A stretch of DNA of 64,000 nucleotides from an uncultured bacterium (GTDB lineage: Bacteria; Omnitrophota; Omnitrophia; Omnitrophales; Aquincolibacteriaceae): contig CAYSSX010000007.1 in the NCBI GenBank assembly GCA_964434115.1, positions 18,734 to 82,733 of the forward strand. Reading direction: 5' to 3'. The first letter of the stretch is position 1; each line of letters opens with the position of its first letter. The notes under the pieces were generated by a model that worked only from the letters and a program-made list of their open reading frames with translations, was not told where the DNA came from and did no database searches. The position numbers and the translations under genes were made by a program. Of the stretch, positions 15,001-63,000 are shown piece after piece.

Positions 15001-18000
15001 GCATTTCTAACGGCGGGGGCAGCTATTCGATCCGTGTTCCGTCTTCCGATAAATTCCAGGAAGCCTCAATCAAGGCGAACCTTAAAGCCGGACGCTACCA
15101 TGTCACCTTCACTTGGAAAAACGATGGCGATTCTAACACAGCACTTTCGGGAGATTTTACACAAGGTCCTGCGACTCTTGAAATTGACGGCATGGTGATT
15201 CGGAACAGTTCGATGGGGAAAAGCGGTGACCTGACTAAAGACGGGGTGACCGACGTGAAAGATGTTGTCCGCTGGATGACGGACAACCCTGACTCTGCCA
15301 ATGAGCAGACCCTGACTTACAACGGGTCTACCTATTATGTGGAGAAACTCGCGGATGGATCTTATTCCGTATTTGAACAAGCCAGCAAGCAGTTCTTTCA
15401 GAGTGTCCCCGGTAAAAATCTCGTCGATGTCTGGAACGTCAACAAGAATGGGAACGTAAAGCTTGTGATTCTGGAGGATGCGGATGGCAAACGCACTCTG
15501 GTCAACTATGTTCCTGAAGATGTGAATCTTGACGGCGCTGTTAACCAAGATGACTGGAATTATGAACTGGAGCAGCTTTCCTATTACGCTAAAACTTATG
15601 ACGGCCGCGACTACTTCAGCCGAGGGAGCGATAAATGGATTCAGAAGCAGGATGGGACCGTGGTAAACACGGCCTCTCCCGGCGACCCCATAACATACCG
15701 CTTTGATATTGAAAAAACGGGCTATTATGATTTGAACCTGCTGGCGCGTAATCTGTCCGCTGGAAGCGCGAATCAGTATTCTCGCATGTATCTTGAAATT
15801 GCGGGGTATGGGCAGATCCGGCTTGACGCCCGTGATGTTAATTACTCCAACGGGACGCTTAAGATTTTCCTCGAAAAGGGAACCCGGGACATTACGATCC
15901 GCTGGAAAGAAATTACGGAAGTCGGAGCGGCAGGGTTTGATCTCAAAAAAGTTTCTCTCACGGAAAGCCGGATTGATTACCAGGCTGATCTTGATGCCAA
16001 CGGCTTCCTGGATTCCCGTGATCTAGTCGCGCTTCAGGCCTTGATGCCTGAAACCACGAATTACGGCGCCGTGAATGTCAGCGGCACCAAGTACCTGGTC
16101 AACAAGCTTGCGGACGGCCGTTACCGTTTCGCGAGCGCGGGGGCTGGAATCACGAGCGCGGTTTGGGTGGACAGTGACGCCCAGGGCAAACTCATTAAAA
16201 TCAGCGGCACGGATTACATCATCAATAAATCCGCCGAAGGTTTGGTTTTCCTTGTGGAACGTCTGCCGCAGGACATGAACCTTGACGGCCTCGTGAATGA
16301 TCAGGATTTTGCGTTTCTGATCGATCAGAGCCAGCTCTCCCAGCAGACTTACCGCGCGATTGACTATTCCACACGCGATGAAAGTGTGACCTGGAAACTT
16401 GGCGCGGATTACAAGACGTTTGTTTCCACCGCCGATGACGCGAGCCTCGGTTTCTCATTCAATGCCAAGGAAGAAGGCTGGTATGACCTTGGTCTTATGC
16501 TGAAGGACGCCAGTGGAACTTCTCTTTCCGCGGATTACCGCTTTAACCTCCGCGTGATCGTGGATGGCGTGCATGTGTCCAATATCCGGGAAGTGCTGAG
16601 CAGTGTGACCTGGAAAGACGGCCGCGCTTCGGTTTACCTCAAGAAGGGGACGCACACCCTCGCGTTTATGTGGGACAACGATGAGGAAGTTGGCGACGCG
16701 GCAGGCATTGAAATCGGCGCGCTCAGCGTCCGGAACCGTCAGGTCAACAGTTATTCGGACGTGAACGGAGACGGCACGCTCAATCAGCTCGATTTTGACA
16801 AGCTGGCTGAAACCCTTCCGGATTCACGCGATATTCAAAAATTCGCCCTGAAGGGCCAGAATTTCATGGTCGTCGCAAATCATGCGGACGGCACCTACAC
16901 CTTTATCCGCGGCGTTGAAACGATCCGTTCCGCTCCGGACAAAACGGTGGTGATCGACAACCTTCTTTATGACGTCATTGTGAACCAGGAAGGCCGCGTT
17001 ATTTTGGCCGAGCAGCTCCGCGGGGACGTGAACGGCGACACCAACACCAATTCCGCGGACACGAGCATTATCAAATCCGCCTGGGGAACGACCCCGGACC
17101 AGGTCAAGACCGGCGACCAGTACTACACGGCCAAGAATTTCACGGCCGGCTGGGGGACGGTTCAGGTCGGGCAGTATGACCAGTCCAAAAAGTACTACGT
17201 GGATTATCTTTTCCAGACCGCCCGTGAAGACAATTACGAACTGAATTTTGAATTGAAGACTTCCAATGACGCGGGCCAGCCGAAAACGACCTGGGCTGTT
17301 TACATTGATGACATGGGTAAAATCTTCAAGACCATTGAAGTGCCGACGAATAAAACCCAGTATGAAATCGCGCAGCTTTTCGCATCGCTTGATGATGGTT
17401 TCCACCGCATCCGTCTTGAACTCCTCAGTCATCGTGACAACCTGACCGCCGAGATCGGTAAAGTTTCTCTGGGATTCCCGGAGTTCGATTCCCGCGCGGA
17501 CCAGAACCGTGACAACGTGGTGGATGTGAGCGATCTTGTGCCGGTCCTTGAAGACGCCTCGGATTCCTCTTTTGTGGAAGTGCTGAAGCTCAGCTCCGTG
17601 CAGTATTACTTCTATGAAAATCAAAACGGCAAATTGTTCCTGACCCGGGATGGTCAAACCGGCTTTGAGAGCAACGCCGCCCAGTCCGTGATTAACATCA
17701 GCGGAACGGATTACTGGATCAATAAGGACGCGCAGGGCAATCATGAACTGGTGAAGATTATTGCCGGGGACCTGAATAAGGATGCCGTGGTCGATGCCGC
17801 GGACCGCACCCTCATTCAAGACCAGGCTGGGGCCGGACGCCGTGAACCTGTGGCCACCGACCCGACAACCTTTACGGAAAAGAACCGCTTCGCCAAGAAC
17901 GGGGCGATTATGGAAGCCTTCCATACGACCAGCGACGGGACAGACCCGATCTACCTTGAATACCAGATGACCTTGGGCGGCAGCATTTATGAAATCAGTC

Positions 18001-21000
18001 TGAATGCCAAGGCTCCCACGGCGCTGGACCTTCCCCGTGCCGATTACGTTTATATGTTTGACCTGTTTGTGGATGACATGACCACGCCGGTGGGAACGAT
18101 CGCCATCCCCGCAAACAAGACAGCCGCACAGACGGACAAACTCCGGGTGGATTTGACGGCCCTTGCCTCGCAGGCCGGCCGCAAGCTTCGGATCCGCTGG
18201 ACAAACCCGGAAGCCAATTGGTCTCAGGCCCAGCAGAAGACCGGCCTGGAAATCAGCGGTTTGATGGTCAAAGACCTGGCTTATGACAGCCGCATGGATA
18301 TCAACGGCGACAAGATTGTGAACAACGCTGATCTGACGGCTTTTGACGCCATCTCGATCCGCACCGCTGTCAAGAGCCAGAAAGTGCCTTCGGATTGGGC
18401 GGACGCCAATGCTCACCGCGGCCTGATGGTTTCAACGCCTCTTCTTCCCGTGGCGCGCGATTCCCTGATGGATGCCGGGGATCTTCTTGCTTCGAACGGG
18501 TGGGCGATGCAGAACGGCCGTTATGCTCAGTCTTCAGGGGCCGCGGTCAAGGCCATTTCCCTGATTAAGGACGGCATTACGGTTCCGGAGAATTTTGATC
18601 TGACGGGCACTCTGCAGTTTGACGGCAACTCCAACCAGGGCCGCGCGGCGGGTATCCTGCTTCGTTATCGTGATGATCAAAACTACGCCTGGATTTCGAT
18701 CGATGGCCCGAACCGCACCATGACTGTCTATGAAGTTGTGGCCGGACAGCAGAAAGCCGTGGCTTCCCAGCAGCTCTCAAGCGATGTCCTGTTCGGTCAT
18801 GATTATGCCTGGAAGGTCGAAGCCCGTGAAAACTTCTACCACATCACGTTCAACGGACAGAAAGTGTTTGAATACCTCAAGCTGACCAAGACGCCGAATA
18901 CCGGAAAAGTCGGCATTTTGAGCGACCGTTCACTGGCCAACTTCTCAAGCCTGGAACTCAAGACCTACACGAACCGCCGCGTTGAGGTTTATGACGTCGC
19001 GAAATCCGGCAATACCTTCAACTTTACGCATTTCACCGACGGCAGCAAGAACGCGTCCAGCGACCCTGTTAAGAATACCGTGGTTCTGAACGGCGTGACT
19101 TATAAACTTCAGGACAACGCCCCGGGCGTGAACCAGCTTTCCCTGATCCGCCAGCCGGTGACGAGCCTTATGGATACTGCGGTCTATCTCCGCGCGGAAA
19201 ATGACTTCTACACCGTGACCAAGGACGGAACGGGTGTTTACCACTTTACGTCTTCTGTGGAAGCCGAAAGAACCAGCACCCTGGTTGATAACAAACCTCA
19301 GGTGACTCTGCATGTCGGCGGCGGCGCCAAACAAAAGACTTATCGTATTGTGGATGCGGGCAACGGACAAGTTCAGCTTGTGGAAATCCCGAAAGCGGCC
19401 GCGGCCGTGTCGTCCGATATCTGGATTGGGGCGGGGGACAAGATGTACATGGTGGAAAACCGCGGCGGAAATGTCTACCGTTTCACTTTGATGGGAACGG
19501 GAACCTTCGTGGACAGCAATGGCACCACAGGCCTTGTGAACCTCAACAGCACGGCTTACCAGGTCAAGGTTACGGGCACCGGCGCGGTGCAGCTGGTCCA
19601 GCCGCGCACGGCCGGCGTTTTACAGGCCAAACAGACGCTTACCCATAACGGTAAAGTGTATGAAGTCACCTACGATAACCTGACCGGAAAATACAGCTTC
19701 CGTGATGTTGTGCTGGGCACCATCCTTCAGAGTAATGCCTTTGAAGGCACGGTCACCCTGAACTCCCAGGTTTATGACATCGTGGTTATGGACCCGGCGC
19801 GCAACATCCGCCTTCTGCAGAAAGAGACTCAGGGCCATGAGGTTTACAGCCACACGGTGCGCTTCGGAAATGATTTTTATGACGTTGTGAAGGAAGGCAA
19901 TGAATATCGCTTTAAGGACGTCCGCCATATTCTCGCGGACCTTGTGACCGTGGGACAGAAAGTCCTGGTGGGTGCCGTCCGCTACAGCATTTATGAAGAA
20001 GCCGCGACCGGTAAGGTCCGCGCGGTCCAGGTCAGCGATGTTTCGGCCGGCAACACGGAACAGCTCGTGTTTGTCGAAGGCACGGGCTACTACTACACCG
20101 TGGTCAGCAACAAAGTGAATATGAAGAAGTACGGCACTTCGACCACCTACGTGGAAGACGTGAATGGCGTGATCAATCTCGGCGGCATTTCCAACTTTAA
20201 AGTGCTCCGTGATGTCCCGGCCGCGGGGGAAGTCGAATTTGCGAAAATCCTGCTGGCCAGCCAAAGCGTGGACCTTGGCTACATGATCCGCGTGGACGGC
20301 ATTGCTTTTAAAGTGACTGCGAACGACGGACCCAAGCAGGTTGTGTTCCAGGCGCTTGAAGGCCCCGTGGACTCGGTGACCGCTTCTTACACCGACCTGG
20401 AAGTCACGATCAAGGGCAACAAATACAAACTGGAATTCCCCGATGCGTCCAATCACGCCAAAGTAAAACTGACGGAAGTGCCGCGCGCCGTGGCACCCGC
20501 GAACGCGGACGTGAAAACCATGTGGGTGGACAATAAATTTTATGACGTAACCGCCGTGGAGCCGGCGAACCCTAACACGGAATACCGCTTTACCAATGTC
20601 ATCAACCCGGTGGAGACCTTTGTCACGGTCAACCGCCAGCTTGTAGGCCAGATCGGCGGCACGACCTTTATTGTCGAAAAGGATCCTTCCAGCGGTGCGA
20701 TTTCGATTCTACGCCCGAGAGTGAAGAGTGATTTCCGCTCCACCGCGCATTCAATAGCGATTTATGATGAAGTGCTGAAGGCCAACCGTATTTGGGAATT
20801 CACCCGATCTGGAAGCCAGTTCACGTTTACCTCATCGGGTGTAGGGAATGTAACGAGCGATGCGGCGGGCAAGCGCGTGACCTTCGGCAGCCAGACGTAT
20901 GACATTCAGGTCATCAATGACGGCCAGCTCCAGATCCTTCTGTCCGCGGTGATTGACGAAGCCCAGAACCTTTATGACCAGATGATTGAAATTGCAGGCA

Positions 21001-48000: not shown

Positions 48001-51000
48001 CAACGGCCCAACTCGCAGCACTGGCGCGCACCTTTAGTGCGGGGAATCACCGCATCCGCTTTACTTGGCTGAATCCTGTCACGAATGCCGCGATGAACAT
48101 TGTGAGGGTGTCGGTCCGGGACACGCGCTATTGGGATCTTGCGGATCTTGATAAGGACGGCGTGATCGGCCTTGGTGATGTTTCCACCTATCTTAATCAG
48201 GCCTCCCGGAGCGATTACGCGAAGCAGATTTCCTTGAACAATAAGCGCTATTACATGGATGGCCGTCCGGAAGGCCGCATCCGCATCACCGATGGCACTA
48301 AGAACTATGATAGCGATGAAGCCGGGCACGAGATAACGGTGGACGGGAAGAAATATTACATCGTTCATGAGGGCCAGGAACCGGTTGCCCTGCGTCTGGT
48401 TGAAGCACTTCGGATTGACCTGAATCAGGACGGCCTTTTCAATGAAGCGGATGACAAGATTTTTGCCGCGGCTTTTGCTAGCCATCAGCATGATATTCTC
48501 CCTGCGGAATCCAGCAATACCCAGTATTTCAAAGGCACGGAAGCTAATGTCGATGCCGCCTACATCGTTTCCCGCGGAGCCACAGGGTCCGGCAGCATGG
48601 GCTACGGCGGTTTTGGAAGCGGAGATCCGACGATCAGCATTACGGAGACCGTCGCGCAGGCCGGGACTTACCGCATCGGACTTGCGGCCCGCAATTACAG
48701 CGGCCAGGATAACAAGCCGAATTGGGACGGCTGGAAATTCTCCAACAACATGACGAATGCGCGCTTTACGGCAGAAGGCGGATTTGCGGCCTCGATCAAC
48801 GGACAAGGATTCGCGTTGTCGAAGGATGGCCTTAGCATTGACGCCAGCCAAAGTAATTACCTGACTCTGGACTATCTGCTCACCAGCGGCTTCAATGGCA
48901 AGATTTATTGGAAACGTGACGGTGATACGGATTTCAATGAAGCCCGCAGCCTTGACTTCTCTCTTTGGGCTAATGGTGAAAGCAAGGAATACTCCCTCTA
49001 CATGAAGGACAATGCCCTTTGGAACGGCATCATCCGTGAAATCAAGCTTGTCCCGACGGATGAAGCGACTTCAAATTTCAATATCCGGGGTATCTCGTTC
49101 CGTAAAACTTCAGATGGTCCGAGCTTAACGGGCTGGGGTGTTTACGGCCCGCAGGAAGAAGGTTACTTTAAATACCGTGTGGTAGTGGATGGCCAGAGTA
49201 AGGGGACGTTTGAGGTTGCGTGGGATAAAACAGGGCACAATGAAAATTACCTGAATGTCGAACTTTCGGCCGGCCAGCACGACATCAAGATTATCGAAAT
49301 GAACAAGTACGGCTACGACTACACCTTCCAGGCTGTTTTCCAGGCTGAGGTTTCGAAATCCTTTATCCGGAAAATTGACACACGTGCTGATTTTAACGGA
49401 GACGGCCTTGTGAACCAGGCCGATCAGGCGGTCTTTGGATCTGAGCATGCCGGTTTCATCGATGAAAATGTTCTCAGCCTTGGCGGTCGTTACCTCTCCG
49501 TAACCGAGAACGGCGACGGCACGGTTACATTTCTCCGGGGCGCTCAGGATGGACAGGTGTATGTGACCGATGCGGCAACAGGACAAATCATGATCGGCGA
49601 CGTCCGCTTTGATGTCTGGAAAGACCCCAGCACAGGGGATGGCGTGGTCAGTATGCCGTTCCGCGACAGCTCTCACGTCTGGGACCAGGTTATCCAACTG
49701 GAAGGCCGGAACCTCGCGGTTCTTCACGAAACCGATGGAGCCTTCCGTTTTATGGAATATGAAAAAGCAAACGGGAAAAGCTACCGGTCCAACATGGAAG
49801 GAAGCCTGGTCGAAATCGAAGGGGTTCTTTACAACATTGAATACAATGAATCCCTGCGTCAGCTCCGTCTTGTGGAAATCACCCATGATATCAAGGCCAG
49901 CGGCTGGGAGTACGCGAAAGTGGGCCAGGACACGATCTGGTACAAAGCGGCTCCGGATGGCACCCCCATTTTCAAATTTGAGAGCGAATACCTGCGCGCC
50001 GACCAAGAAACCGGGTATCTAATTTTTAAGGGCGCCCGTTACAAAATCATGAAAGATCGTCTGGACCGCCTCAGCCTTATGGAGATTCAGACGGGGGACT
50101 TGAATGAAGACGGTACTCTTGATTTCGCGGATCAGGAATTGATGCTTGAATCTTTGCCTTCACAGGTTCCGTATCATCTGGATGCGACCACGGCTTCGAA
50201 ATTCAACCGTTTTGTCGAAGGCCAAAACGGAGACATGATGTACTCGACCTATCAGGGCTATCCGAACTATGCCAGTTATTACCTTGATTATGAAGTGACG
50301 CTGGACACGCCGAAATCCCAGGACATCGCGGCTTATGATGTCGGCCTTAGCCTGAAAAGCTATGACGGCATGACGATCCCTGAAAATTATGAATATAAAT
50401 TTGAAATCCTCGTGGATGGTATCAAGGCTGGTGTTTTGACCATTCTGGGCGATGAACAGAAATACCAAAGAGAATCGCTCCGCCTTAATCTTCCGGACGG
50501 CTTCCACACAGTCCGTTTCCGCTGGATGAACCCTGTTTCCGATGTGAGCGTCGAAATCAACGAGGCTTTTATTGATGAAGTGGACTCCCATCTTGGAGCC
50601 AATCTTGTGCAGTCGGATGAAACCCTTCCCGAGATTCCTGTGAAGGTCGGCACGCTCAATGAAAAAGACCGCTCAATCGTCGAAATGAAGATCGGTGACC
50701 AAACTTACCGAATCGCTCGTGATGAAGCCGGTTTTGGCTATAGCGGCACCCAGCCGGTCATTGTTTATGCCGTGGTGGATGAGCACACGGGCAAAGTGAT
50801 CAAAACCGGCTACACGGGAACCTGGGATGCCCCGGCCTCTGATTTCCAGGACATGGTCACAGCCATGCCGGAAGGCCGCATGGTGGTGGCCGCAACCTTT
50901 GGAGGCGCGCCTTACAGCTACTCCGGAACCAATGAACTTTTCCGTGCTTTTGAAGCTCTCGGTGCTTCAGATTTCCGCAACATCAGCCAGGGCGACAGCT

Positions 51001-54000
51001 GGGTATTCGTGGGCCGCAAGGGCGCCCGATCAAGCAGCGTGACGGAATCTCTAGCCCGTGAACAGGACAGTAAATCAAGGACTGCGGTCAGCATTGTGAC
51101 CCGCGCGGGTTCGGACAAAGACCGCATTCAGGTCAATGACCGCGACTATGAATTGTTTCAGGAAAAATTTAACAGCTCGAAGGAATATCAGAAGATCAAG
51201 CTGGACGCCGTGGACTATTACCTCAGCCGCACGGGGACGGAGGCCTATACCCTGACTGATGGAACCACGGTCTGGGACAGTGTTATGGTCGACGGGGTAG
51301 CCGAGCTGACGGTGAACGGTAAATCCTATCATGTAGAGCAGGATGCCATCGGCCGCTTTGAAATGGTGGAAGCCATCCCCGGAGATCTTAACCAGGACGG
51401 AATTATTGATAACCAGGACGCCGCGCTTTTGACCGGCTATCTGGGTTCCGCCAATTTTACTCAGTCCGGCCGTAATGTGATAGCGACCAGCGGAGTTTTC
51501 CAGTACGGTGACGAGCCCGATAACTTCTATATCAGCGCTTGGGGCGGTTACGGCGGTTATGGCGGCGGTATGGGGATGGGCATGGGAATGGGCGGCGAAG
51601 AGGGCGGGTCCGGCGGCCGCGGGAATTATGACACACTTGCCGGCTTTAAGACCGAAGACTCCCTTGTGACGCTAGGCAAGAGAATGCCCATGGCCTTTGA
51701 TGTCGAAGTTTCCGAAGACGGCTACTACGCAGCGGGACTTGAGGCCCGGAATTATTTCCAGGCACTCGCTGACTGGAAGATTGAAGTGGATGTCTATGTG
51801 GATGATGAATATGTCCGTCAGGCCGAATTCAATTTTGACGCCACGCGCGCGGATTACGAAATCCAGAAAACCAATCTCTTCCTTAAAAAAGGCAAGCACC
51901 GGATCTATTTTGTGGTCACTGATGAATTCGGTGACGGTAATCGTGAAGTCCTCGGCCAGGCGCCTGACCTCACCGGCAAACCGCTTTCGGTCGGTTCGTC
52001 TCTGGAAGTGAAACAGTTTGTCTTTACTGACTCCTCCTACAATCGCCAAGCGGACATTAACCGTGACGGTAAAATTGACGGGGGCGACCAGCAAATGCTT
52101 GCGGATATTATCGGCGTCAGCGGTCGCATTGTCAGCCGTCTGAAGGCTGAAGCCGCGCTTGTGATCCAGATTGAGAACCGTTTCTTTAGCGTGGAAATCG
52201 CGGGTGAGCAGGTCACTTTCCGTAATGGTGCTGAGGTCATTACGCCCGATGCTGAAGGCCGTTTCGCGATAGAAGGCCGTAAGTATCAGGTGAGTCGTAA
52301 TGCCGCGGGCGATGTTGGAATTTCTGGGGTCAGCGAAGTTTATGCCTTGATTGATCCTTCCGCCTCGGCCGAAACGAGCCAGGTTCAGGCCGATTCCTTT
52401 GTGATGATCGGCGACCATTACTGGAACATTCAGAAGCTTGGCGACGGGCATTTCCGTTTCTTTGACGATGCGGGCCAGGAAGCGACTTCTGCTGCCGGAA
52501 CAGGCGCGGATGAAGTGACCCTCCTTGGCGTGAAGTACAAAGTTTTTGGCACGGATCCGAAAGCCCTCACGCTTGAAGAGTTCCACATTGAAAGCGTTAA
52601 GACCGGTGACCTTTTGATCCGTCTCGGCGGTGTGGATTACCGCGTATTGGCGGAGAACGGCAACTGGCGCTTTACGAACCTGGCCAATGCCAATCAGACC
52701 TACCTTTCCGCGAGCGGCAACATCACGCTCCCAAGCGGTACTTACAGCGTGGTCTGGAGTGAAACGCTTAAGGAACTCGTGATCGGCAATCACCCGATTA
52801 TTTCCCAGGGCCTTGCCAAACAGGGTGTGGAACTCGGCGATAAGCTGTATGAAATCACGGTCAACGGCAATACGTCACTCACCCTCTCGGGTGTTGACGG
52901 GCCGTGGACTTCAACGGTGTTTGCGCCGGATGCAACGGTTACGGTCAACGGCCAGCTCTACGTGATTCAGCAAAACGCGGAAGGCCGTTACGTCTTCACA
53001 GGCCGCATTCACAGTTCGCCGGTGGTGGGACCGGTTCTTCTTTTCAACGGCGACCTGTTTATGGTCGAGCAGGTGGGCAATCAGTTTATTCTCCGCGATC
53101 ACGGCCGTCTCTATAAGAGCGGCGCGTATGTGAATGACGCAGTGGTCACCGATTCGTCTCCCGCGGGCGACATTCAGGGAGGTCAGGACACGACCCCGCG
53201 CGACACGATTACCAACACCTCGAACAATGCCCCGATCACCGTGAACCCGGCAGGGACGACCGTGACCGGTTCTCCGATCACCAGTGACAGCGGCAATACA
53301 AACTACACAGGCACGGGGATCGATGCCGCTCATCCGGACATCCCCAGCCAGGGCGCGAGCGCGGCGGATATTCCTTCCGCGGGAACCGCGGCCGCTTACC
53401 CGCAGGTTGCGGATCAAGGGTCCGTGCTCGACACCATTATTTCCGACAAGGTTTTGGGGTCCGGAGTTTCAATTGACGGAGTGACGTCGAATGTTGTGGT
53501 TTCCAAGACTGCCGCTGACGCTCAGCACTTGGCTGTGCTCAGTCAGAATGGAACTTTCGAGGCCGCAAACGGTGAAAGTTACACCTGGGCTTGCGACTAC
53601 CAGGGCGCAGGGGATACCTGCTACCTTCAGATCCGTAACTCTTTGAACGCCTTGGTCTATAGCGAAAGCAAGGCGGGCGTCACCACCAATTCTCTTTTCG
53701 CGAAACCTTTCCTGGCAGGAAGCATTCCGTACGCGGTCCGCTATACGCCGTCCAACAATACGCTTTCGCTTTCGGCGCTGGGCAAGACAGGCACCTTCAC
53801 GATCGCGGGGCAGGGTGACTTCCGCTTTGGTTATGTGGAGTACACGGAAGCGTCACAGAATAAATTCATCTTTAAAATTGAGAAGACCGACGGTACCCAA
53901 CTTTACACGCAGGAAGGCCTTGTGCCGCCGGCGCCGAGCTTTGTGCAGGTTTACAACGCGGGAACGGAAAGCTTCACGGTCAATTTCAACAAGGATTCTT

Positions 54001-57000
54001 CCGAGCTTAAACTCAAGCCCATGATTGACCGCGGGACGTTTATTGGCACGGACAACAAACCTTACAGCTGGATCTATGAACGCAAGAGCGGTAATCAGTG
54101 GGAATACAAAATCATGGACGGCCAGACGGTGGTCTACCAGCAGACAGGCTCGGGTATTGATACGCCGGCCATGGCCGAACCGTTCTTCCTCCGCGCGAAG
54201 GCGTACCGCATTCAGTATGACGCGGTCACCCGCAAGCTGAACCTGGTTCCGGCAGCGATCAGCCGCCAGTTCACAGGAACAGACAATCAGGTTTATGAAT
54301 GGGTTTTCGCGGCCTGGACAACCACGCAGGGCAATCGCTGGAAAATCGCGATCCATAAAGTCTCGGATGGTTCCCAGGCTTACATGCAGGAAGGGACCGG
54401 AACCGCGCCCGCGCGTTTTGAAGGTACGCTCCGCCTCGCGAATGTGACTTACAAAGTTGCCTACAACCAGGCCTTCGACCGCCTGAGCCTTGTTCCTCCG
54501 GCGGTTTACGGGGAGTTCACTTCGGACAGCAAGACGTATGTCTGGGGCCTGGACGGAAGCCTGGATCCTCTGGATCCGCTTCCCACACCGCAGGTCACGC
54601 CCATCACCAATGCCGGTCAGACTGATAACGGCGCGGCTTTCCAGATTTCTGTGACGCAGCAGGGCTCCGGGTTTACGGAATTCCGTGTTGACGGCGGGCC
54701 CGCGAACAATTGGAACTGGGAGAGAACGGCCATTTTCATCAATGGCGTGAAGGTTGCGGATGTGGCTAGAAACAGCGCGTTCCGCATTAACTATTCAGGC
54801 CCGCTGGGGGATTTAAAAATCAAGGCCCAGTTTATGGATGATTATGGCGGCCTCTTTGGTACGGCCACGCCGGAAGTCACGGTTTCCACCGGTCCGCTCT
54901 GGGCCATGACGATCGGCATCCCGGGTGAAACGCCGGCGTATCAGGTTTCCGGAATGAACCGTCCGCCGGTTCCGTCCGAACCTGTCTTTATTGGCGCCAA
55001 GGCCTATACGCTCGTTTACAACGCTGGAACCAAGACCCTCACCCTGACCGCGGCCGGAACCACCGGAACCCTGACGGGCCCGGACACAAAATCCTACACC
55101 TGGAGTCTTGTGACCTGGGCCGAAGGCCAGACGAACAAATGGAAGATCGTCATGATGCAGGCCGATGGGTCCAACCGTTATGAGCAGACGGGCACAGGTG
55201 CGGTGCCCGCAGTTTTTGACGCGCACATGCTGTTTGGAAATGCCCCTTACTCGCTGAATTACACAACTCAGGACTCCAAGCTGACCTTTAAATCCGCGGC
55301 TGTGGCCGGAACCTTTACCCTGGACGGCCGTGTGTATCAGTGGGCGTATGAAAACCGCACGGGCAATAACTGGACCCTGAAGATCACGCGTCAATCGGAT
55401 TCCGCGGTGGTCTACGACTTCGGCGGCACGGGAAAAACTCCGGACTTCAAAGTGCCCTTTGCGGAAGACGCGAGATTCTTCAGCCTCGCTTTGGATCTTG
55501 GCACCAAGGGCTTGACCCTGACGCAGGCCGCGAATGTCAAAAAAGGAAACTTTGCGGGACCCGACGGTAATTACCTCTGGGCTTTTGTCCGTTACGAAGA
55601 CAACGGCAGCCAGTGGCGTTTTGTTCTCCAGAAGGAAGGCTCTCTTTCAAGCACTCAGCTCACGGGCACGGGCACGGTTCCGGAAGTGTTTGCCGGTGTG
55701 GTGAACCTTGGCGGTGTGAATTACGGAATCCGCTACGAAGAAGGCACCTCGACGATCCGGGCTTTTGAGGCGCAGCAGACGGGCACCTTCACCGTCGGTC
55801 CCACGAATTATGTCTGGACCTACAATTATCTCGGAACAAGCTGGAACATGGATGTCCGTGAACAGGGCGGCGCGAATGTTTACACGGCGTCAGGCCCGGG
55901 CGCGGTTCCGGCCTTCACCCAGCCTTACCATATTGGCAGCAAGGATTACGCTTTGACGTATACAGTCAGCAATCATGTTTTGACCCTTGTGCCCACGGGT
56001 ACGCCGCTTCAGAGCACGGATACAAGCGCGGATTACAACAACACGGGCGCGAACCCAGTTTATTCCACGGTCACCAGCCAGGGCGCCAGCGGCGCGGACC
56101 TTAATTATACGGGTGCTGCCCCGGGTGACAGCGTGATCAATGGCGGCGGTGTGGCCCGTGAACAGATTACCCAGGACGCGGTTCCTGCCACGGGTTCAAG
56201 CCAGACTAGCAGCAATCTCAACGCGCCCAAGACCGCCACCGGAGCCGATGCGACACACGGCAACTTGGTAAGCGATTCTTCGAATGCCCCGATCGGTTCC
56301 AACGGTCAGGACTGGAGCCAGGGAGGCGTCGGTCCTTCCAATCTCGTGAGTAATGGAACCGGGTGTGTGGGTACGGGCATGATGCAGCCGCGCAACTGCT
56401 CCGGCTCCTTCACGGCCGCGGACGGCAGGCTTTATACCTGGACTTCCCAGACCATGATGGGTTCGACGAACTACACCATTCTTGATGATGACGCGATGCA
56501 GGTGGTCAGCGGCAGCGGCGTTCAAAGCTGGAATGTTGCGAATTATCCGTACTCCTACAGCATTAGCTTTGCAAGCGACAACATGACGCTGGATCCCGTT
56601 GGAATTCACGGCACGTACCAGGCCGGAAATCCGCTTGCGGACTACGACTGGATCTACAGCGAAAGCGGCATGATGATGTTCAAAAACTTTACGTTCAAAA
56701 TGAGCAAACGCGACGGCACCAATTATAAACAAGCGACCGGGTCCTATGAGCCTGACATGGATGAACTTCCCGCTTTAGGAACTTATACGATCGGAAGCAC
56801 GACTTATGACCTGGCCTATAACCCCTCCACCAAGCAGCTGGCGCTGGCCCAGGCCGGACCTGTCACTGGAACCTTTACGGGCGCTGACGGCCTTGAGTAC
56901 ACCTGGACCTACAGCTTCAACGGCATGACCAGCAGTTTCGATGTCAAACAGGGAGGCACCACGGTTTATCCGCTGGTGTCCACGAGCGGCACGGTTCCGA

Positions 57001-60000
57001 ACCTGGGCGTCCCGCTGGTTCTTCAGAGCCAGTATGCCTATCAAATGACTTATGACCCGGTACTTGGGAGGCTCACGGTTAATAAAGCCCCGAGCAAGAA
57101 GGGTACGATCAATGTCGATGGAGACGACTACCGCTGGGTTTACGCGGAATACACGGAAAACAGCGTGAACAAATACATTTTCAAGATGGAAAAGAATGAC
57201 GGCACAAATGTTTACAAGGTGTCGGGCAACAGGCCCGCTCCTGCCTCTTTTGGTACAACGTACACGATCGGTAGTGTGACGTATACCGTTGCCTATGATG
57301 TGAATCTGGCCAAAGTGTCTCTCAGTTCGCCGGATGCCTGGGGCGACATCACGGGCCCTGACAGCAAAGTTTACCGCTGGACCTACAGCTTCAACAGCCA
57401 GGCCTCGACATGGACCTTCAATATTAAGAACGATCAGCAGCAGACCATTTACTCGGACAACGGTACAGGCAGCGGGAATCTGACTCTGCAGGAACATTTC
57501 ATTGTCGGCAACAAGGCCTTTGACATCAGCTTTGATACAACCACCCGCAATGTGACCTACACGCCTACGGGCAAAACAAAAACTTTCATGATCAACGGCA
57601 AGAATGTTGAGTACACCTATGTGACCTGGACCAAGAGCAGTACTAATTACTGGGCTTTTGTGATGAGCGAAACGGACGGGACGAATGTTTATCTGAAGCA
57701 GACGGGAACAGGCAACCCGCCGGCCAAGTTCTCGCCGCTTTATGTGGTGGGCGGAAAAGCCTACAAGGTGGGATTTGATCCTTTGACTGGAGCCAACGGC
57801 CGCATGCTCTTTGATTCGCTGAATGCGGACGGCACGATTTTGATCAACAGCCAGAACTACAACTGGTCCTACGACAACGTGGATGGCGGCAATGCCGGAA
57901 CGTTTACCCTGAAGATCGGACCGACGGTGATGTACACGTTGAGCGGGCTCTCTCATCCGCCGGTTCTGAACGTGCCTTTCTTTACGAATGGGGATGGCTA
58001 TGCGCTGACGTTCAATGCCGCGACCAACACGCTGCAGGCCCAGCGCACCGGTACGGTCGGAACCTTTACCCAGCAGAGCCAGAACTTTAAATGGAGCGTG
58101 AACACCTGGACTGTGAACAGCACGAATTACTGGAGACTGATGATCCAGAAAATAGACGGCTCGAATGTTTATGATCAGCAGGGGACAGGAACTCTTCCGA
58201 CCAATTTCAGCGGTCTTTATACGATCGGCACTTCGTATTACGAAATTCTTTACAACGCGGGCCAGAAAAAACTCACGCTGCATCCGACCGCTTTGACCGG
58301 CAGCTACACCGTGGACAGCAAACAGTATGACTGGAGATACGATACGCCCGGCGGCAACAGCTGGCTGCTCGAAATCAAAGATCATACAACGCTCGCCGTG
58401 GTTTACACCAAGACCGGAGCGGGAACCACGCCCAGCTTCACGGACCCGGTCATTCACGGAGTGAAGAGCTACACGCTGAACATCCAGGACCGCATTCCGG
58501 GCCAGCCGATGAAGGACCTTGTGCTCACGTCCGCAGGCAAAACTGGTACCTTTACCGGGCCTGCGTCTCAAAATTATGAATGGACTTTTGTCACCTTCCA
58601 GACCGGCACAAAATGGCGCCTGGTGCTCCGCCGGACGGACGGCTCGAATGTGTATGACAAGACAGGCGATATGCCGCTCAGCGCGACATTGAACGGGCTT
58701 TACAACATGAACAGCATTTTTTACGCGGTGGATTACGACACGGCCTTGAACAAAATCCGTCTTTCAGAAGCCACCCAGTCCGGCAGCCTGACCGGACCGG
58801 ATGCCAAGACCTACAATTGGAATTACGCCTATGACGGCGCGAATTACACGTTCAGCCTCGCGGAGCAGGGCGGCGCCAATCCTTACAGCCGTTCCGGCGC
58901 GGGATCAGTCCCCGTGTTGTCAGGCACTTACACGATGGGCGACACCCTTTACACCCTGGGCTTTGACCGCAAGCTCCAGAAACTTACGATGACAGTCACG
59001 GGCGACCCGATTCAGGGCGCGACCACCCGCACGCTGACCCAGTCCGCGGGAACAACGCCGACTTACACGGGAACCACGGCCACGGGCACCAGTGCGGCCG
59101 ATTTCTCCAGCACCGGTGCAGCGGCGCAGCACGCGGGTGTGACCTCTGAAGGACAAAAACTGCCGGTTCTTGTTTCCCAAACCAACATTGAGAGCCTGAA
59201 CCAGAACATCCCGTATGACTCCACGGGTGCGGATACATCGGCGCCTGTTATTAACAGTGATATTGTCCCGCCGTTCATTTCTTCCACCGGCGCCAAACTC
59301 CGCGACAATAACACGACGGTCGACGGCACCGCTCTTGGCGGAAATAAATATGAAGCGCATTTCACGGCACAGGACGGAAAAGATTACATCTGGACTTATC
59401 AAGAAGGTGTTTTCAACCCCATGACTGAGGAGTCCACGCCCACGACGCTGGACATTATCTCCGTCACGACCGGCTTGTCGGTTTACAGCGCGTCGGTGGA
59501 CGGTTACATGGCGAGCAACATGCCGACCTGGTTTTTGAAGGACGCGGCGGATCATCCTTACTATGCCTACGACTTCCAGTACGCAACGGGCGGCCACTTG
59601 ACCTTCAAGCCTGTGGAACGCGTGCTTGGCAGTTTCCAGGCAGGCGAGCCGCTGGAAACCTTCCAAACCATTTACTTCACTTATGAAGTGCCCGGCCAGT
59701 ACGGCTATAGCACCACGCATTGGGCGTACACGATCCGCAAGGCGGACGGCTCCACGGCTTTCTTTGATACGGGGACGGTCGATGGCGGCATGCATGGTGA
59801 CGAGGGCGGGGATACGGACAATATTTTGATGGCAGGGGTTTTCACGGCCAGCAGCAAAACCTACAAGGTCAATTACAACAAAGTGAATTTCAAGAGCCTC
59901 CTGAAACCTGAAACTCTTGCCGGAGCGTTTGCCGGTGAAGACGGTGCGAATTACACCTGGACGCTGGCGGAAGTCCATCAGCAGTATCAGACCACGACCT

Positions 60001-63000
60001 GGACACTGGTCATTAAGGACAGCTCGAACAACGAAGTTTACCGCTATGAATCCCAGGCTGAGACGCCTGATTTCCAGAAGCCGCTTGTACTGAAAGACGG
60101 CCGCTTGTACCGCTTGACCTATGACGCGGCGCTGGGCCGTTTGACCCTGACACCCGCGGGACAGACAGGCACCATCACGACCGCTTCGGAGGGCTCCTAC
60201 CGCTGGTCGTTCCTGAAGTACACAATCCAGGGTATGTACGGCCTGCAGACAAAATACATTTTCACGGTGCGCAAGACGGACGGCACCAATGTCTACACGC
60301 AGACCGATGAAGACAATTGGATGGAAGGTTCGGAAGTTCCGGAATTCTTCACCCCGGCCTACACGATTGGTTCCGTGATTTACAAGGTGGGTTATAACGA
60401 GACGGATAAGAAATTGAATCTCGTACCGTCCTCGCACGCCGGAACGTTCACGGATCCTTTTGGAACTGTTTACCAATGGGAATTCTCAAAGGTCAATCTT
60501 TACCGCGGCTGGCCGCAGAACCGTTACGAAGATCAATGGACGCTGAAATTCAAGACGGGCGGCACGGAAGTTTATAACAAATCGGGCTGGGTCACGGACG
60601 GCCTCCCGAATCCCGCGGAACCGTTTATGGTGCGTACCCGCGCGTTCTCGGTTTCTTACAATGAAGCGGATGGAACGCTGACGCTGGCCCCGGCCGGACC
60701 CACCAAGACCTTCAAGGGCTCTGACAATGCCGACTATGAATGGTTCTTTGTCTCCTGGCTGGATAGCGGGACAACAAAATGGAAATTCATGATGAGCCGC
60801 ACCGACGGCTCCAATGCCTACACCAAGAACGGCGACGGTACGCCTCCGGCCCGTTTCGATGACCTGTTCCGCATGGGCGCAAACCCGTATGTGGTGCTGT
60901 ATGACAAGAATCTGAACCGCCTGACTTTGACGCCTCCCGGAACCGTGGGGGATTTTGAAGGCCCTGACGGAAAGAAGTACCGCTGGACCTTTGACAACCC
61001 GACGGGCAATGCCTGGTCGTTCCGTCTTGAGCGCGAAGACGGCCAGAATGTCTACACCAAGACCGGCACTGGAATTGTCCCGTCGTTTGTGACGCCTTAC
61101 TTCATGGGCGCGCGCGCTTACTCGATTACCTATAACCCGAACACCTATGACCTTCGTTTCAACACGATGGGAACCGCGGGCACGTTCCGCGGTCCGTTCA
61201 CGCTTACAGGCCCGGATGACTATGAGTGGACCTACGCGAGCTGGACTGAAAATTCCCAGACCAAGTGGCAGTTTGTGATTGAGAAGAAAGACGGCACCGG
61301 CAACTACGTGCAGTCCGGCACCGGCACAACGCTTCCGGATCCGTTCACAACCCGTTACGCGTTTAACGGCAGCACCTACACCGTAAGCTTCAATAAAACC
61401 ACCGGGGCGCTTGTTCTCAAAGCCACGGCCATCAGCGGTTCTTACACCTCTCAGGGCAATATGTACAACTGGGTGTATGACAACCCCACGGGCAACAAGT
61501 GGTCCATCAAGATTGACCGTCCGAATACGGAAACCGCCCTTGATCCCGCGGGCCGCATCGGTCTTGGCTCTGCGGTGAATCCCACGGCCGGGAATGAAAT
61601 CGGCAATGACCAGCCGTTCGAAATTTATGTCGTGGAACAAGGCTATGACACGGTCACCCGCAAATGGTTTGTCCGTTATGGATTCCGCGGGGGCCCGAGC
61701 TATTCAAGCGGTGAAGGCGGCCAGTCCTGGTACTACAACAACGTGTACATCAATGGCCAGCTGATCGGAAAAATGTACCGCTACAACGGCTTCCGTCTTG
61801 AATTCACTGAGCCTGTGGGCGATGTGCAGGTCACCGCGCAGCCCGTGAACTGGAACGGCGACACGGTTGGCAATCAGGGCAGCTACCGTTCAGCGCCGAA
61901 CACGGTCCGCTTGTGGCCGCCGGTTTACTACGCGGAAGGTTATGGCGCAACCCCGAACCTTGACAGCCTGATCGCTCATGGCTTTGACCTTTACTTGCCG
62001 GTGTTTAACGTCGGTCTCAAAAAACTCACGCTCGACAGCACGGGCCAGACAGGAACCTTCACAGGTCCTGACGGCAATTACCAGTGGGCCTACTCGCGCT
62101 ACATGGAAAGCGGATCCTGGCAGTGGCGTTTCATGATCAAGAAATCTGACGGCACGGTGGTTCATCAGGTCCGCGGCACCAACACACCGCCCGCGACGCT
62201 GGCCACGATCTATAAAATCCAGGGTGTTGATTACGCGATTGATTTTAACCCCACGACCAAACAGATCATGATGGCCAAGGCCCTGCAGAGCGGTACCTTC
62301 ACGGAAGGCTCAAAGACCTTTACCTGGAATTACTCGTTTGACGGAAATGCCTGGACGTTCAAGATTCTGAATGACGCGAGCGCCGTGGTTTACACCCGCA
62401 GCGGCACGGGCACAGCCCAGCCTGACCTGAGCGAACCGGTGGTTTTTGGAGCGCGCGCCTACACGCTTGGCTTGAACCGCGCCACTAACCGTTTGACTTT
62501 GACACCGGCCGGAACCGGCAACACCTTCACAGGTCCGGACAGCAAGTCTTATCAATGGGTGTATATCTCTTATATGGATGGCGGCTGGACGCGCTGGAAG
62601 TTCGCGATGATCGGAACCGACGGACAGAACGCGTATCTTGAAACCGGCAATTATTCAGTGCCCGCGCATTTCACCAAGACGTTCACCATGGGCGGTATTG
62701 AGTATGTGGTTTCCTACAATGACACCACCAAGAAAATCACCTTTGAACATTACGCGATTGTGGGAACTTTCACGGGGCCCGGCGGCAAGACCTACAGCTG
62801 GAGCTACTCCAACCCGAGCGGTTCTTCCTGGACCTACGACATTCTGGATTCCGACGCGAAACGCATTTACCGCGCCACGGGTTATGGCGCTTCCCCGGCA
62901 TTCTCAACGCCGGTTTACCTCGGCGACGTTTTCCCGTACACCATTGCCTATGACGCGGGCCTCCGGAAAACAACCCTGACACCTGCCGGCATTCTGGGAC

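Follow-up and report, generated by a model that had tools for sequence, protein, structure and literature searches.

The 64,000-nucleotide stretch analysed here (the window; contig CAYSSX010000007.1 of an uncultured Omnitrophota bacterium) encodes part of a giant protein. We found that this protein carries a single complete domain of the GG-type lectin fold, which is known from the FAM3/ILEI/PANDER proteins, from the stem of POMGnT1 and from the GG domains of TMEM2/CEMIP. The host protein is encoded on the plus strand by one stop-free open reading frame (frame 3, 21,332 codons), which spans the whole window and is open at both ends. Since this frame runs past both window ends, the protein must be longer than 21,332 amino acids and both of its termini are located beyond the window. 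An initial annotation of this DNA had proposed an ILEI/FAM3-like domain in a bacterial giant protein, and the presence of such a domain was confirmed by the Pfam scan, by direct matches to FAM3 sequences, by a profile of relatives and by comparison of the predicted fold.

When we scanned the translated window with Pfam-A, as the initial annotation had suggested, the profile PF15711 (ILEI, "Interleukin-like EMT inducer") matched with 56 bits (E = 6e-15) over profile positions 6-90 of 90, and the curated gathering cutoff of this family is 27 bits. The peptide quoted in the initial annotation was found exactly, in frame 3 of the plus strand (amino acids 16897-17036). Direct comparison with all PDB chain sequences by phmmer yielded FAM3C (E = 4.3e-7), FAM3A (8.5e-6) and FAM3B (7.9e-5), and the alignments to these chains reproduced the conserved FAM3 blocks that had been named. 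An exhaustive HMMER search with amino acids 16860-17060 as query against 1.84 billion representative proteins returned 147 matches at E <= 1e-3, 53 of them at E <= 1e-10. Word-indexed homolog searches gave no match, neither with the domain query nor with alignment A1, which consists of the window sequence and 38 diverse domains of about 150 amino acids taken from the HMMER matches. When the window sequence was left out, the profile of the 38 relatives gave it 83 bits and aligned from position 3 to position 147 of its 154 positions. Thus, the N-terminal strands beyond the 90-residue Pfam core are also present. In a comparison of the A1 profile with the PDB, FAM3C, the POMGnT1 stem, FAM3A, FAM3B and TMEM2 were detected at E-values of 2e-27 to 2.5e-25. 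The initial annotation had placed the domain at 50690-51110. It is located there, but its true start lies about 57 nucleotides upstream and its end about 18 nucleotides earlier (Table 1). Pfam scans and self-comparison revealed no second ILEI domain anywhere in the 21,332 amino acids.

Next to the sequence matches, we predicted the structure of the domain by AlphaFold2 without templates and with A1 as multiple sequence alignment. This model reached a predicted local distance difference test score (pLDDT) of 81 and a predicted template-modelling score of 0.80, and it was preferred to a single-sequence model of 340 amino acids (pLDDT 48), which was discarded. When we compared the model with the PDB by Foldseek, the best 21 matches were all FAM3A/B/C, the POMGnT1 stem or TMEM2, and after the 21st match the E-value rose sharply from 1e-3 to 0.12. 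The template-modelling scores were 0.62-0.77 for full-domain matches to FAM3 and the POMGnT1 stem and about 0.5 for chains of the FAM3C dimer and for TMEM2. It can be seen that the predicted model matches the beta-beta-alpha layered fold of the solved FAM3 and POMGnT1-stem structures. Because the model was built on the family alignment, the sequence matches and the fold match do not count as two entirely independent lines of evidence.

The nearest named homolog of the host protein was MBI3306332.1 (P0034), a partial protein of 5,283 amino acids from a Candidatus Omnitrophica metagenome-assembled genome (GCA_016196555.1, JACPXL010000010.1). Its residues 2-1143 are colinear with the block of the window given in Table 1, and its identity across the ILEI query in the exhaustive search was 36%. 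Scans of the GTDB representative genomes with a peptide pattern and with an exact 48-mer gave no match to the window. In addition, a metagenome scan revealed an ortholog (L001) on the 212-kb JGI contig Ga0209573_1000118, which forms a single open frame over all 21.7 kb covered. This ortholog is colinear with amino acids 15004-20510 of the window (61% identity, 5,541 columns) and carries the ILEI domain at the same place. The Pfam core of the domain is 80% identical between the two proteins compared with 62% overall, and this value was equalled only by amino acids 17504-17700. Within the domain, the nonsynonymous divergence (pN) was 0.21 and the synonymous divergence (pS) 0.82 (saturated). These data show purifying selection on the ILEI domain and conservation of its position in two homologous giant proteins. 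Since the domain is colinear in MBI3306332.1 and in the ortholog, since its core is 80% identical and since pN is far below pS, it constitutes a stable, selected part of this giant-protein family.

A chance resemblance or a compositional artefact, with no real domain behind it, has a practically negligible probability. Matches of beta-hairpin repeat proteins (SprB, MBG and others) to the N-terminal strands (query residues 66-128) did occur, but they are spurious; P0054 and P0097 with SprB and MBG repeats and P0015, another repeat protein, were rejected as candidates, and none of the three carries PF15711. The similarity of the window domain to the ILEI family is far above chance, and the artefact explanation is refuted by independent significant scores, by coverage over the whole length of the domain, by the confident model with its clean fold match and by purifying selection.

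Table 1. Position of the GG-type lectin domain and of other features of the window
Feature	Nucleotides	Amino acids	Strand	Details
Host open reading frame	3-63998		+	Dockerin/TSP3/EF-hand-rich giant protein, at least 21,332 amino acids
Complete GG-type lectin / ILEI-PANDER fold domain	50634-51092	16878-17030	+	Single copy; leave-out profile 83 bits
Pfam PF15711 core	50769-51026	16923-17008	+	E = 6e-15, 56 bits
F16911	50733-50735	16911	+	Position of POMGnT1 Arg129 (hidden Markov model alignment with the stem); F also in L001, F or G in P0034
G16967	50901-50903	16967	+	Position of POMGnT1 Asp179; R in L001, D in P0034
G16997	50991-50993	16997	+	Position of POMGnT1 Arg207; G in L001, E in P0034
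Block colinear with P0034	49632-53132	16544-17710 (about 1,170)	+	blastp 31% identity, 1,185 columns, E = 4e-157
End of beta-rich upstream module	50400-50633	16800-16877	+	Conserved with P0034 (pairwise alignment A2); part of a repeat present about four times
Dockerin/EF-hand-type calcium loop PGDLNQDGIIDNQDAALLTGYLGSA	51378-51452	17126-17150	+	PF00404 Dockerin_1, E = 3.8e-7
PF06439	3741-4244	1247-1414	+	E = 1.2e-11, single copy
Cysteine pairs	33498-56399	11166/11173, 12434/12446, 13564/13571, 14603/14608, 15006/15012, 17864/17873, 18788/18799	+	

The stem of POMGnT1 binds beta-linked N-acetylglucosamine (GlcNAc) via Arg129, Asp179 and Arg207 (PMC9802357). This triad is kept in the FAM3 proteins and in Fam3L2 of C. 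elegans, both of which bind sugars (PMC9802357). Neither GlcNAc nor mannose was bound in vitro by C. elegans Fam3L1, in which D179 and R207 are missing (PMC9802357). The CBM_1 of streptococcal phages retains equivalents of Arg129 and Asp179 (PMC9437275). In the window domain, F16911, G16967 and G16997 replace the R-D-R triad, and thus the canonical pocket is absent. The column of Arg129 is assigned with less certainty than the other two: a six-residue insertion follows it in the window and an alternative register would place a Q there, but neither register supplies an Arg. The ortholog L001 carries F/R/G at these positions and MBI3306332.1 carries (F or G)/D/E. The missing triad and these differences argue against a conserved canonical pocket in the three proteins, and they would fit a purely structural role equally well.

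The initial annotation had proposed a glycan-binding head. Its lectin fold was confirmed, but the exchange of all three POMGnT1 residues for F/G/G weakens the case for canonical sugar binding. A lectin that recognises beta-linked GlcNAc or mannose in the manner of the POMGnT1 stem, which is the literal meaning of that proposal, appears improbable. The domain shares fold and family with the stem, the host protein contains carbohydrate-related modules (PF06439 and weak Pfam matches to CBM_35), and glycan binding has been suggested for Dockerin-type giant proteins in a preprint (bioRxiv 10.1101/2023.11.21.568195). However, the R-D-R triad is kept in 167 of the 405 related domains and lost here, and the loss of such residues abolished binding in Fam3L1 (PMC9802357).

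The remainder of the host protein is dominated by repeats. Pfam profiles detected Dockerin_1 in successive pieces of 5,000 amino acids (E = 2e-57, 2.6e-37 and 2.4e-48), bacterial TSP3 repeats (TSP3_bac, E = 6.8e-35) and EF-hand_7 pairs, and a simple motif scan counted 70 calcium-loop motifs of the dockerin/EF-hand type. No transmembrane-like segment was found in the 21,332 amino acids by a crude hydropathy scan, which is not a transmembrane predictor (maximal Kyte-Doolittle mean over 19 residues 1.46, no window above 1.6). The protein is a calcium-binding scaffold without a transmembrane segment and is presumably extracellular. Self-comparison identified the ILEI domain as a non-repeated island between repeated modules. 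Next to ILEI, PF06439 (3-keto-disaccharide hydrolase, formerly called DUF1080) is among the few non-repeat Pfam domains of the window.

On balance, with odds slightly better than even, we favour the reading that the domain acts via a non-canonical surface as a specialised module for recognition or connection, built into an extracellular adhesion scaffold that is stiffened by calcium. The single GG-type lectin domain sits as a unique island in a long scaffold of calcium-binding repeats, and a ligand, if there is any, would be bound via a remodelled site or via another surface and not by the POMGnT1 mechanism. Either of these would be needed for any ligand because the R-D-R pocket for GlcNAc is replaced by F-G-G. 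Phages use this fold in tail fibres and receptor-binding proteins, which sets a precedent for a role in adhesion. What we say about the function of the window domain is inferred throughout.

Several observations weigh against this favoured reading. We infer the extracellular location of the host protein solely from its domain types and from the missing transmembrane segments, and both termini of the protein fall outside the window. From the sequence itself, an origin in Omnitrophota is indicated by a single named homolog with 31% identity and by the domain architecture. The sugar-binding triad is absent from the window domain, and at two of the three positions the window protein, the ortholog and MBI3306332.1 do not all carry the same residue. 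Moreover, the residues conserved in the clade (IVYA, DExTG, PEGRM, LFRAFEALG, VFVGxKG) are mostly core fold elements.

The main rival, which we rate as possible but clearly less probable, is that the domain might be a structural or protein-protein connector, i.e. a joint or spacer of a fibre-like scaffold that binds no sugar. A precedent is T4-like gp35, which contains a GG domain and serves the long tail fibre as hinge connector, and gp35 hinge connectors were among the structural matches of our model (ranks 16, 17 and 19 in BFVD). The replacement of the POMGnT1 sugar-binding residues at three of three positions, two of which differ among the three giant proteins, would also be consistent with such a connector, as would the failure of Fam3L1 to bind either sugar without D179 and R207 (PMC9802357) and the location of the clade-conserved residues in core strands and a helix. 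However, the domain is present as a single copy and its core is conserved above the level of the repeat scaffold (80% vs. 62%), as one would sooner expect of a site with a specific function than of a spacer. In addition, an aromatic F is conserved at the Arg129 position in the window protein, the ortholog and MBI3306332.1 (F or G in the latter).

More speculatively, and with a rather low probability, the GG fold may have been re-purposed in such a way that a site around the conserved aromatic F16911 replaces the R-D-R pocket and recognises a different target on the envelope of host or prey. If this is true, the target could be, for instance, a surface protein or a polymer of an archaeal or bacterial cell wall, and the domain would determine the specificity of attachment.

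The recognition or connector module favoured above belongs to a family with many prokaryotic and viral members. The initial annotation had considered its presence here an unusual lineage distribution. This claim is unsupported because the fold is known from phage tail fibres, from annotated bacterial proteins and from giant proteins of Omnitrophota. GG domains of phage gp35, FAM3, POMGnT1 and TMEM2 go back to Guo et al. 2006, as cited in PMC10276149 and PMC3742443, and the same fold forms the carbohydrate-binding module of streptococcal phage tail proteins (Tal CBM_1; PMC9437275). When we searched BFVD with the predicted fold, the matches comprised tail fibres and receptor-binding proteins of phages as well as gp35 hinge connectors, and several of them are already named ILEI/PANDER. 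In UniRef, a protein of the cyanobacterium Laspinema is named "ILEI/PANDER domain-containing protein", and the exhaustive HMMER search yielded about 30 proteins of about 1,900 amino acids with two ILEI matches. We scanned one of them (P0038): this C25 peptidase carries two ILEI domains together with CARDB and FlgD_ig domains, and its locus is a typical bacterial one for polysaccharide biosynthesis. At 8001-13859 of L004 (JGI Ga0137716_10004650), the C25 peptidase, 1,952 amino acids long with two ILEI domains, CARDB and a C-terminus of the FlgD_ig type, lies in the middle of the polysaccharide-biosynthesis cluster (glycosyltransferases, Wzy, flippases). Members of the P0052 cluster are named "C25 family cysteine peptidase [bacterium]" in NCBI.

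FAM3B and FAM3C structures have conserved cysteines and disulfides. That the domain was acquired recently and horizontally from FAM3 or POMGnT1 of an animal is very unlikely and was rejected as an explanation of the window domain. The best sequence matches in the PDB are animal proteins, but solved structures exist only for the animal members of the family. Against such a transfer, the domain has no more than about 20% identity to FAM3 and is devoid of the FAM3 cysteines (the host protein is free of cysteine between amino acids 15012 and 17864). It is also common to homologous giant proteins whose identity has fallen to 31%, and it has numerous relatives in bacteria and phages.

Proteins with 5-6 tandem ILEI domains gave the best sequence matches to the window domain. 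One of them (P0003; L002 6001-8274) is located on a 682-kb contig (ENA ERZ25069412) with sparse gene calls and with fragments of Peptidase_S8 and CUB, and this context suggests a eukaryotic contig. Another one (P0050) comes from EukProt, and we did not count the tandem arrays as bacterial evidence.

On the N-terminal side of the ILEI domain, a module is repeated about four times at amino acids 16650-16850 (approximate limits from self-comparison). The beta-rich module that ends directly before the domain (amino acids 16800-16877) gave no significant Pfam match. On the C-terminal side, a Dockerin-type calcium loop follows about 95 residues downstream of the domain, and after it we observed a low-complexity linker rich in Gly and Met (GGYGGGMGMGMGMGG, 51552-51596, amino acids 17184-17198), which has no counterpart in MBI3306332.1. 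According to self-comparison, the stretch from about amino acid 17150 to 17800 is mostly unique, and highly repeated modules start at about amino acid 17850. No significant Pfam or PDB match was obtained for the conserved unique region of amino acids 17400-17800. Within it, amino acids 17504-17700 (52512-53102) are best conserved with the ortholog L001 (77-82% identity vs. 62% overall; pN 0.14), and they are built of short motifs resembling beta-hairpins ('VDYRV', 'LYEITVNG', 'LYVIQQNAEGRYVF'). This segment may be another functional module. Upstream of MBI3306332.1 there is an open reading frame of 524 amino acids (L003 1-1575), which overlaps the start of this protein by 4 nucleotides and is cut off by the end of the contig. 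An upstream continuation of the giant gene is therefore possible there, via a frameshift or a split call.

The 21,332 amino acids of the host protein include 14 cysteines, all of which occur as close pairs with a spacing of 5-12 residues (Table 1). This pairing suggests small disulfide-closed loops spaced along the scaffold. On the minus strand, antisense to the giant open reading frame, over 20 stretches of 300-660 codons contain no stop (e.g. 56778-58763, 16827-18431 and 58923-60485), which are probably a by-product of the codon composition of the giant frame and not genes.

A standard Pfam scan annotates this region of the giant gene correctly. The missing sugar-binding residues call for caution in taking the label "ILEI domain" as a sign of glycan binding when the function of giant proteins of uncultivated bacteria is discussed. 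Being small, well folded and present as a single copy, the domain would lend itself to expression and binding studies as a practical first candidate.

When we compared the window domain with known systems, the best sequence and structure matches were FAM3C (ILEI), FAM3B (PANDER) and FAM3A, with which it has the conserved blocks in common. The FAM3 proteins are small stand-alone secreted proteins, whereas the window domain is one module of more than 21,000 amino acids. In addition, the triad reported to be kept in FAM3 (PMC9802357) is lost in the window domain, which also lacks cysteines. The POMGnT1 stem (PDB 5GGF/5GGJ; Kuwabara et al. 2016) resembles the domain in its fold (template-modelling scores 0.62-0.77) and in the family profile (E = 7e-27), but the triad differs (F/G/G) and the window domain is not joined to a glycosyltransferase. 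In the phage GG domains (T4-like gp35 hinge connector, Tal CBM_1), the fold is used in adhesion fibres that target prokaryotes; unlike phage CBM_1, the window domain has lost the equivalents of Arg129 and Asp179, and its host protein is cellular and not viral. The C25 peptidases (P0038, P0052 cluster) are likewise bacterial, secreted, multi-domain proteins that bear PF15711, but there two ILEI copies flank the peptidase and the domain identity is only about 30-37%.

The closest parallel for the whole protein is the class of Dockerin-type giant proteins of Omnitrophota. The study of West-Roberts et al. 2023 (bioRxiv 10.1101/2023.11.21.568195) describes them as mostly free of transmembrane segments with many Dockerin, EF-hand and TSP3 repeats, lists ILEI and DUF1080 for them and proposes attachment to host or prey surface. 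It covers three proteins, and a C-terminal transmembrane anchor together with SecA-related and C39-like domains is a further feature of the class. The cluster with Dockerin and TSP3 architecture was recovered again in a 2026 preprint. Like these proteins, the window combines Dockerin/EF-hand and TSP3 repeats with PF06439 and ILEI, and it has no transmembrane segment. It fits the published class, an assignment that rests on the domain inventory, and the region of the transmembrane anchor, SecA and C39 falls outside the window. Taken together, the occurrence of the fold in bacteria and phages is well established, and the ILEI domain is already described for this class of giant protein. The accessible text of West-Roberts et al. 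2023 names the domain without a residue-level analysis, and the loss of the triad predicted here from the alignments for the window domain, and in part for the ortholog and MBI3306332.1, goes beyond that text.

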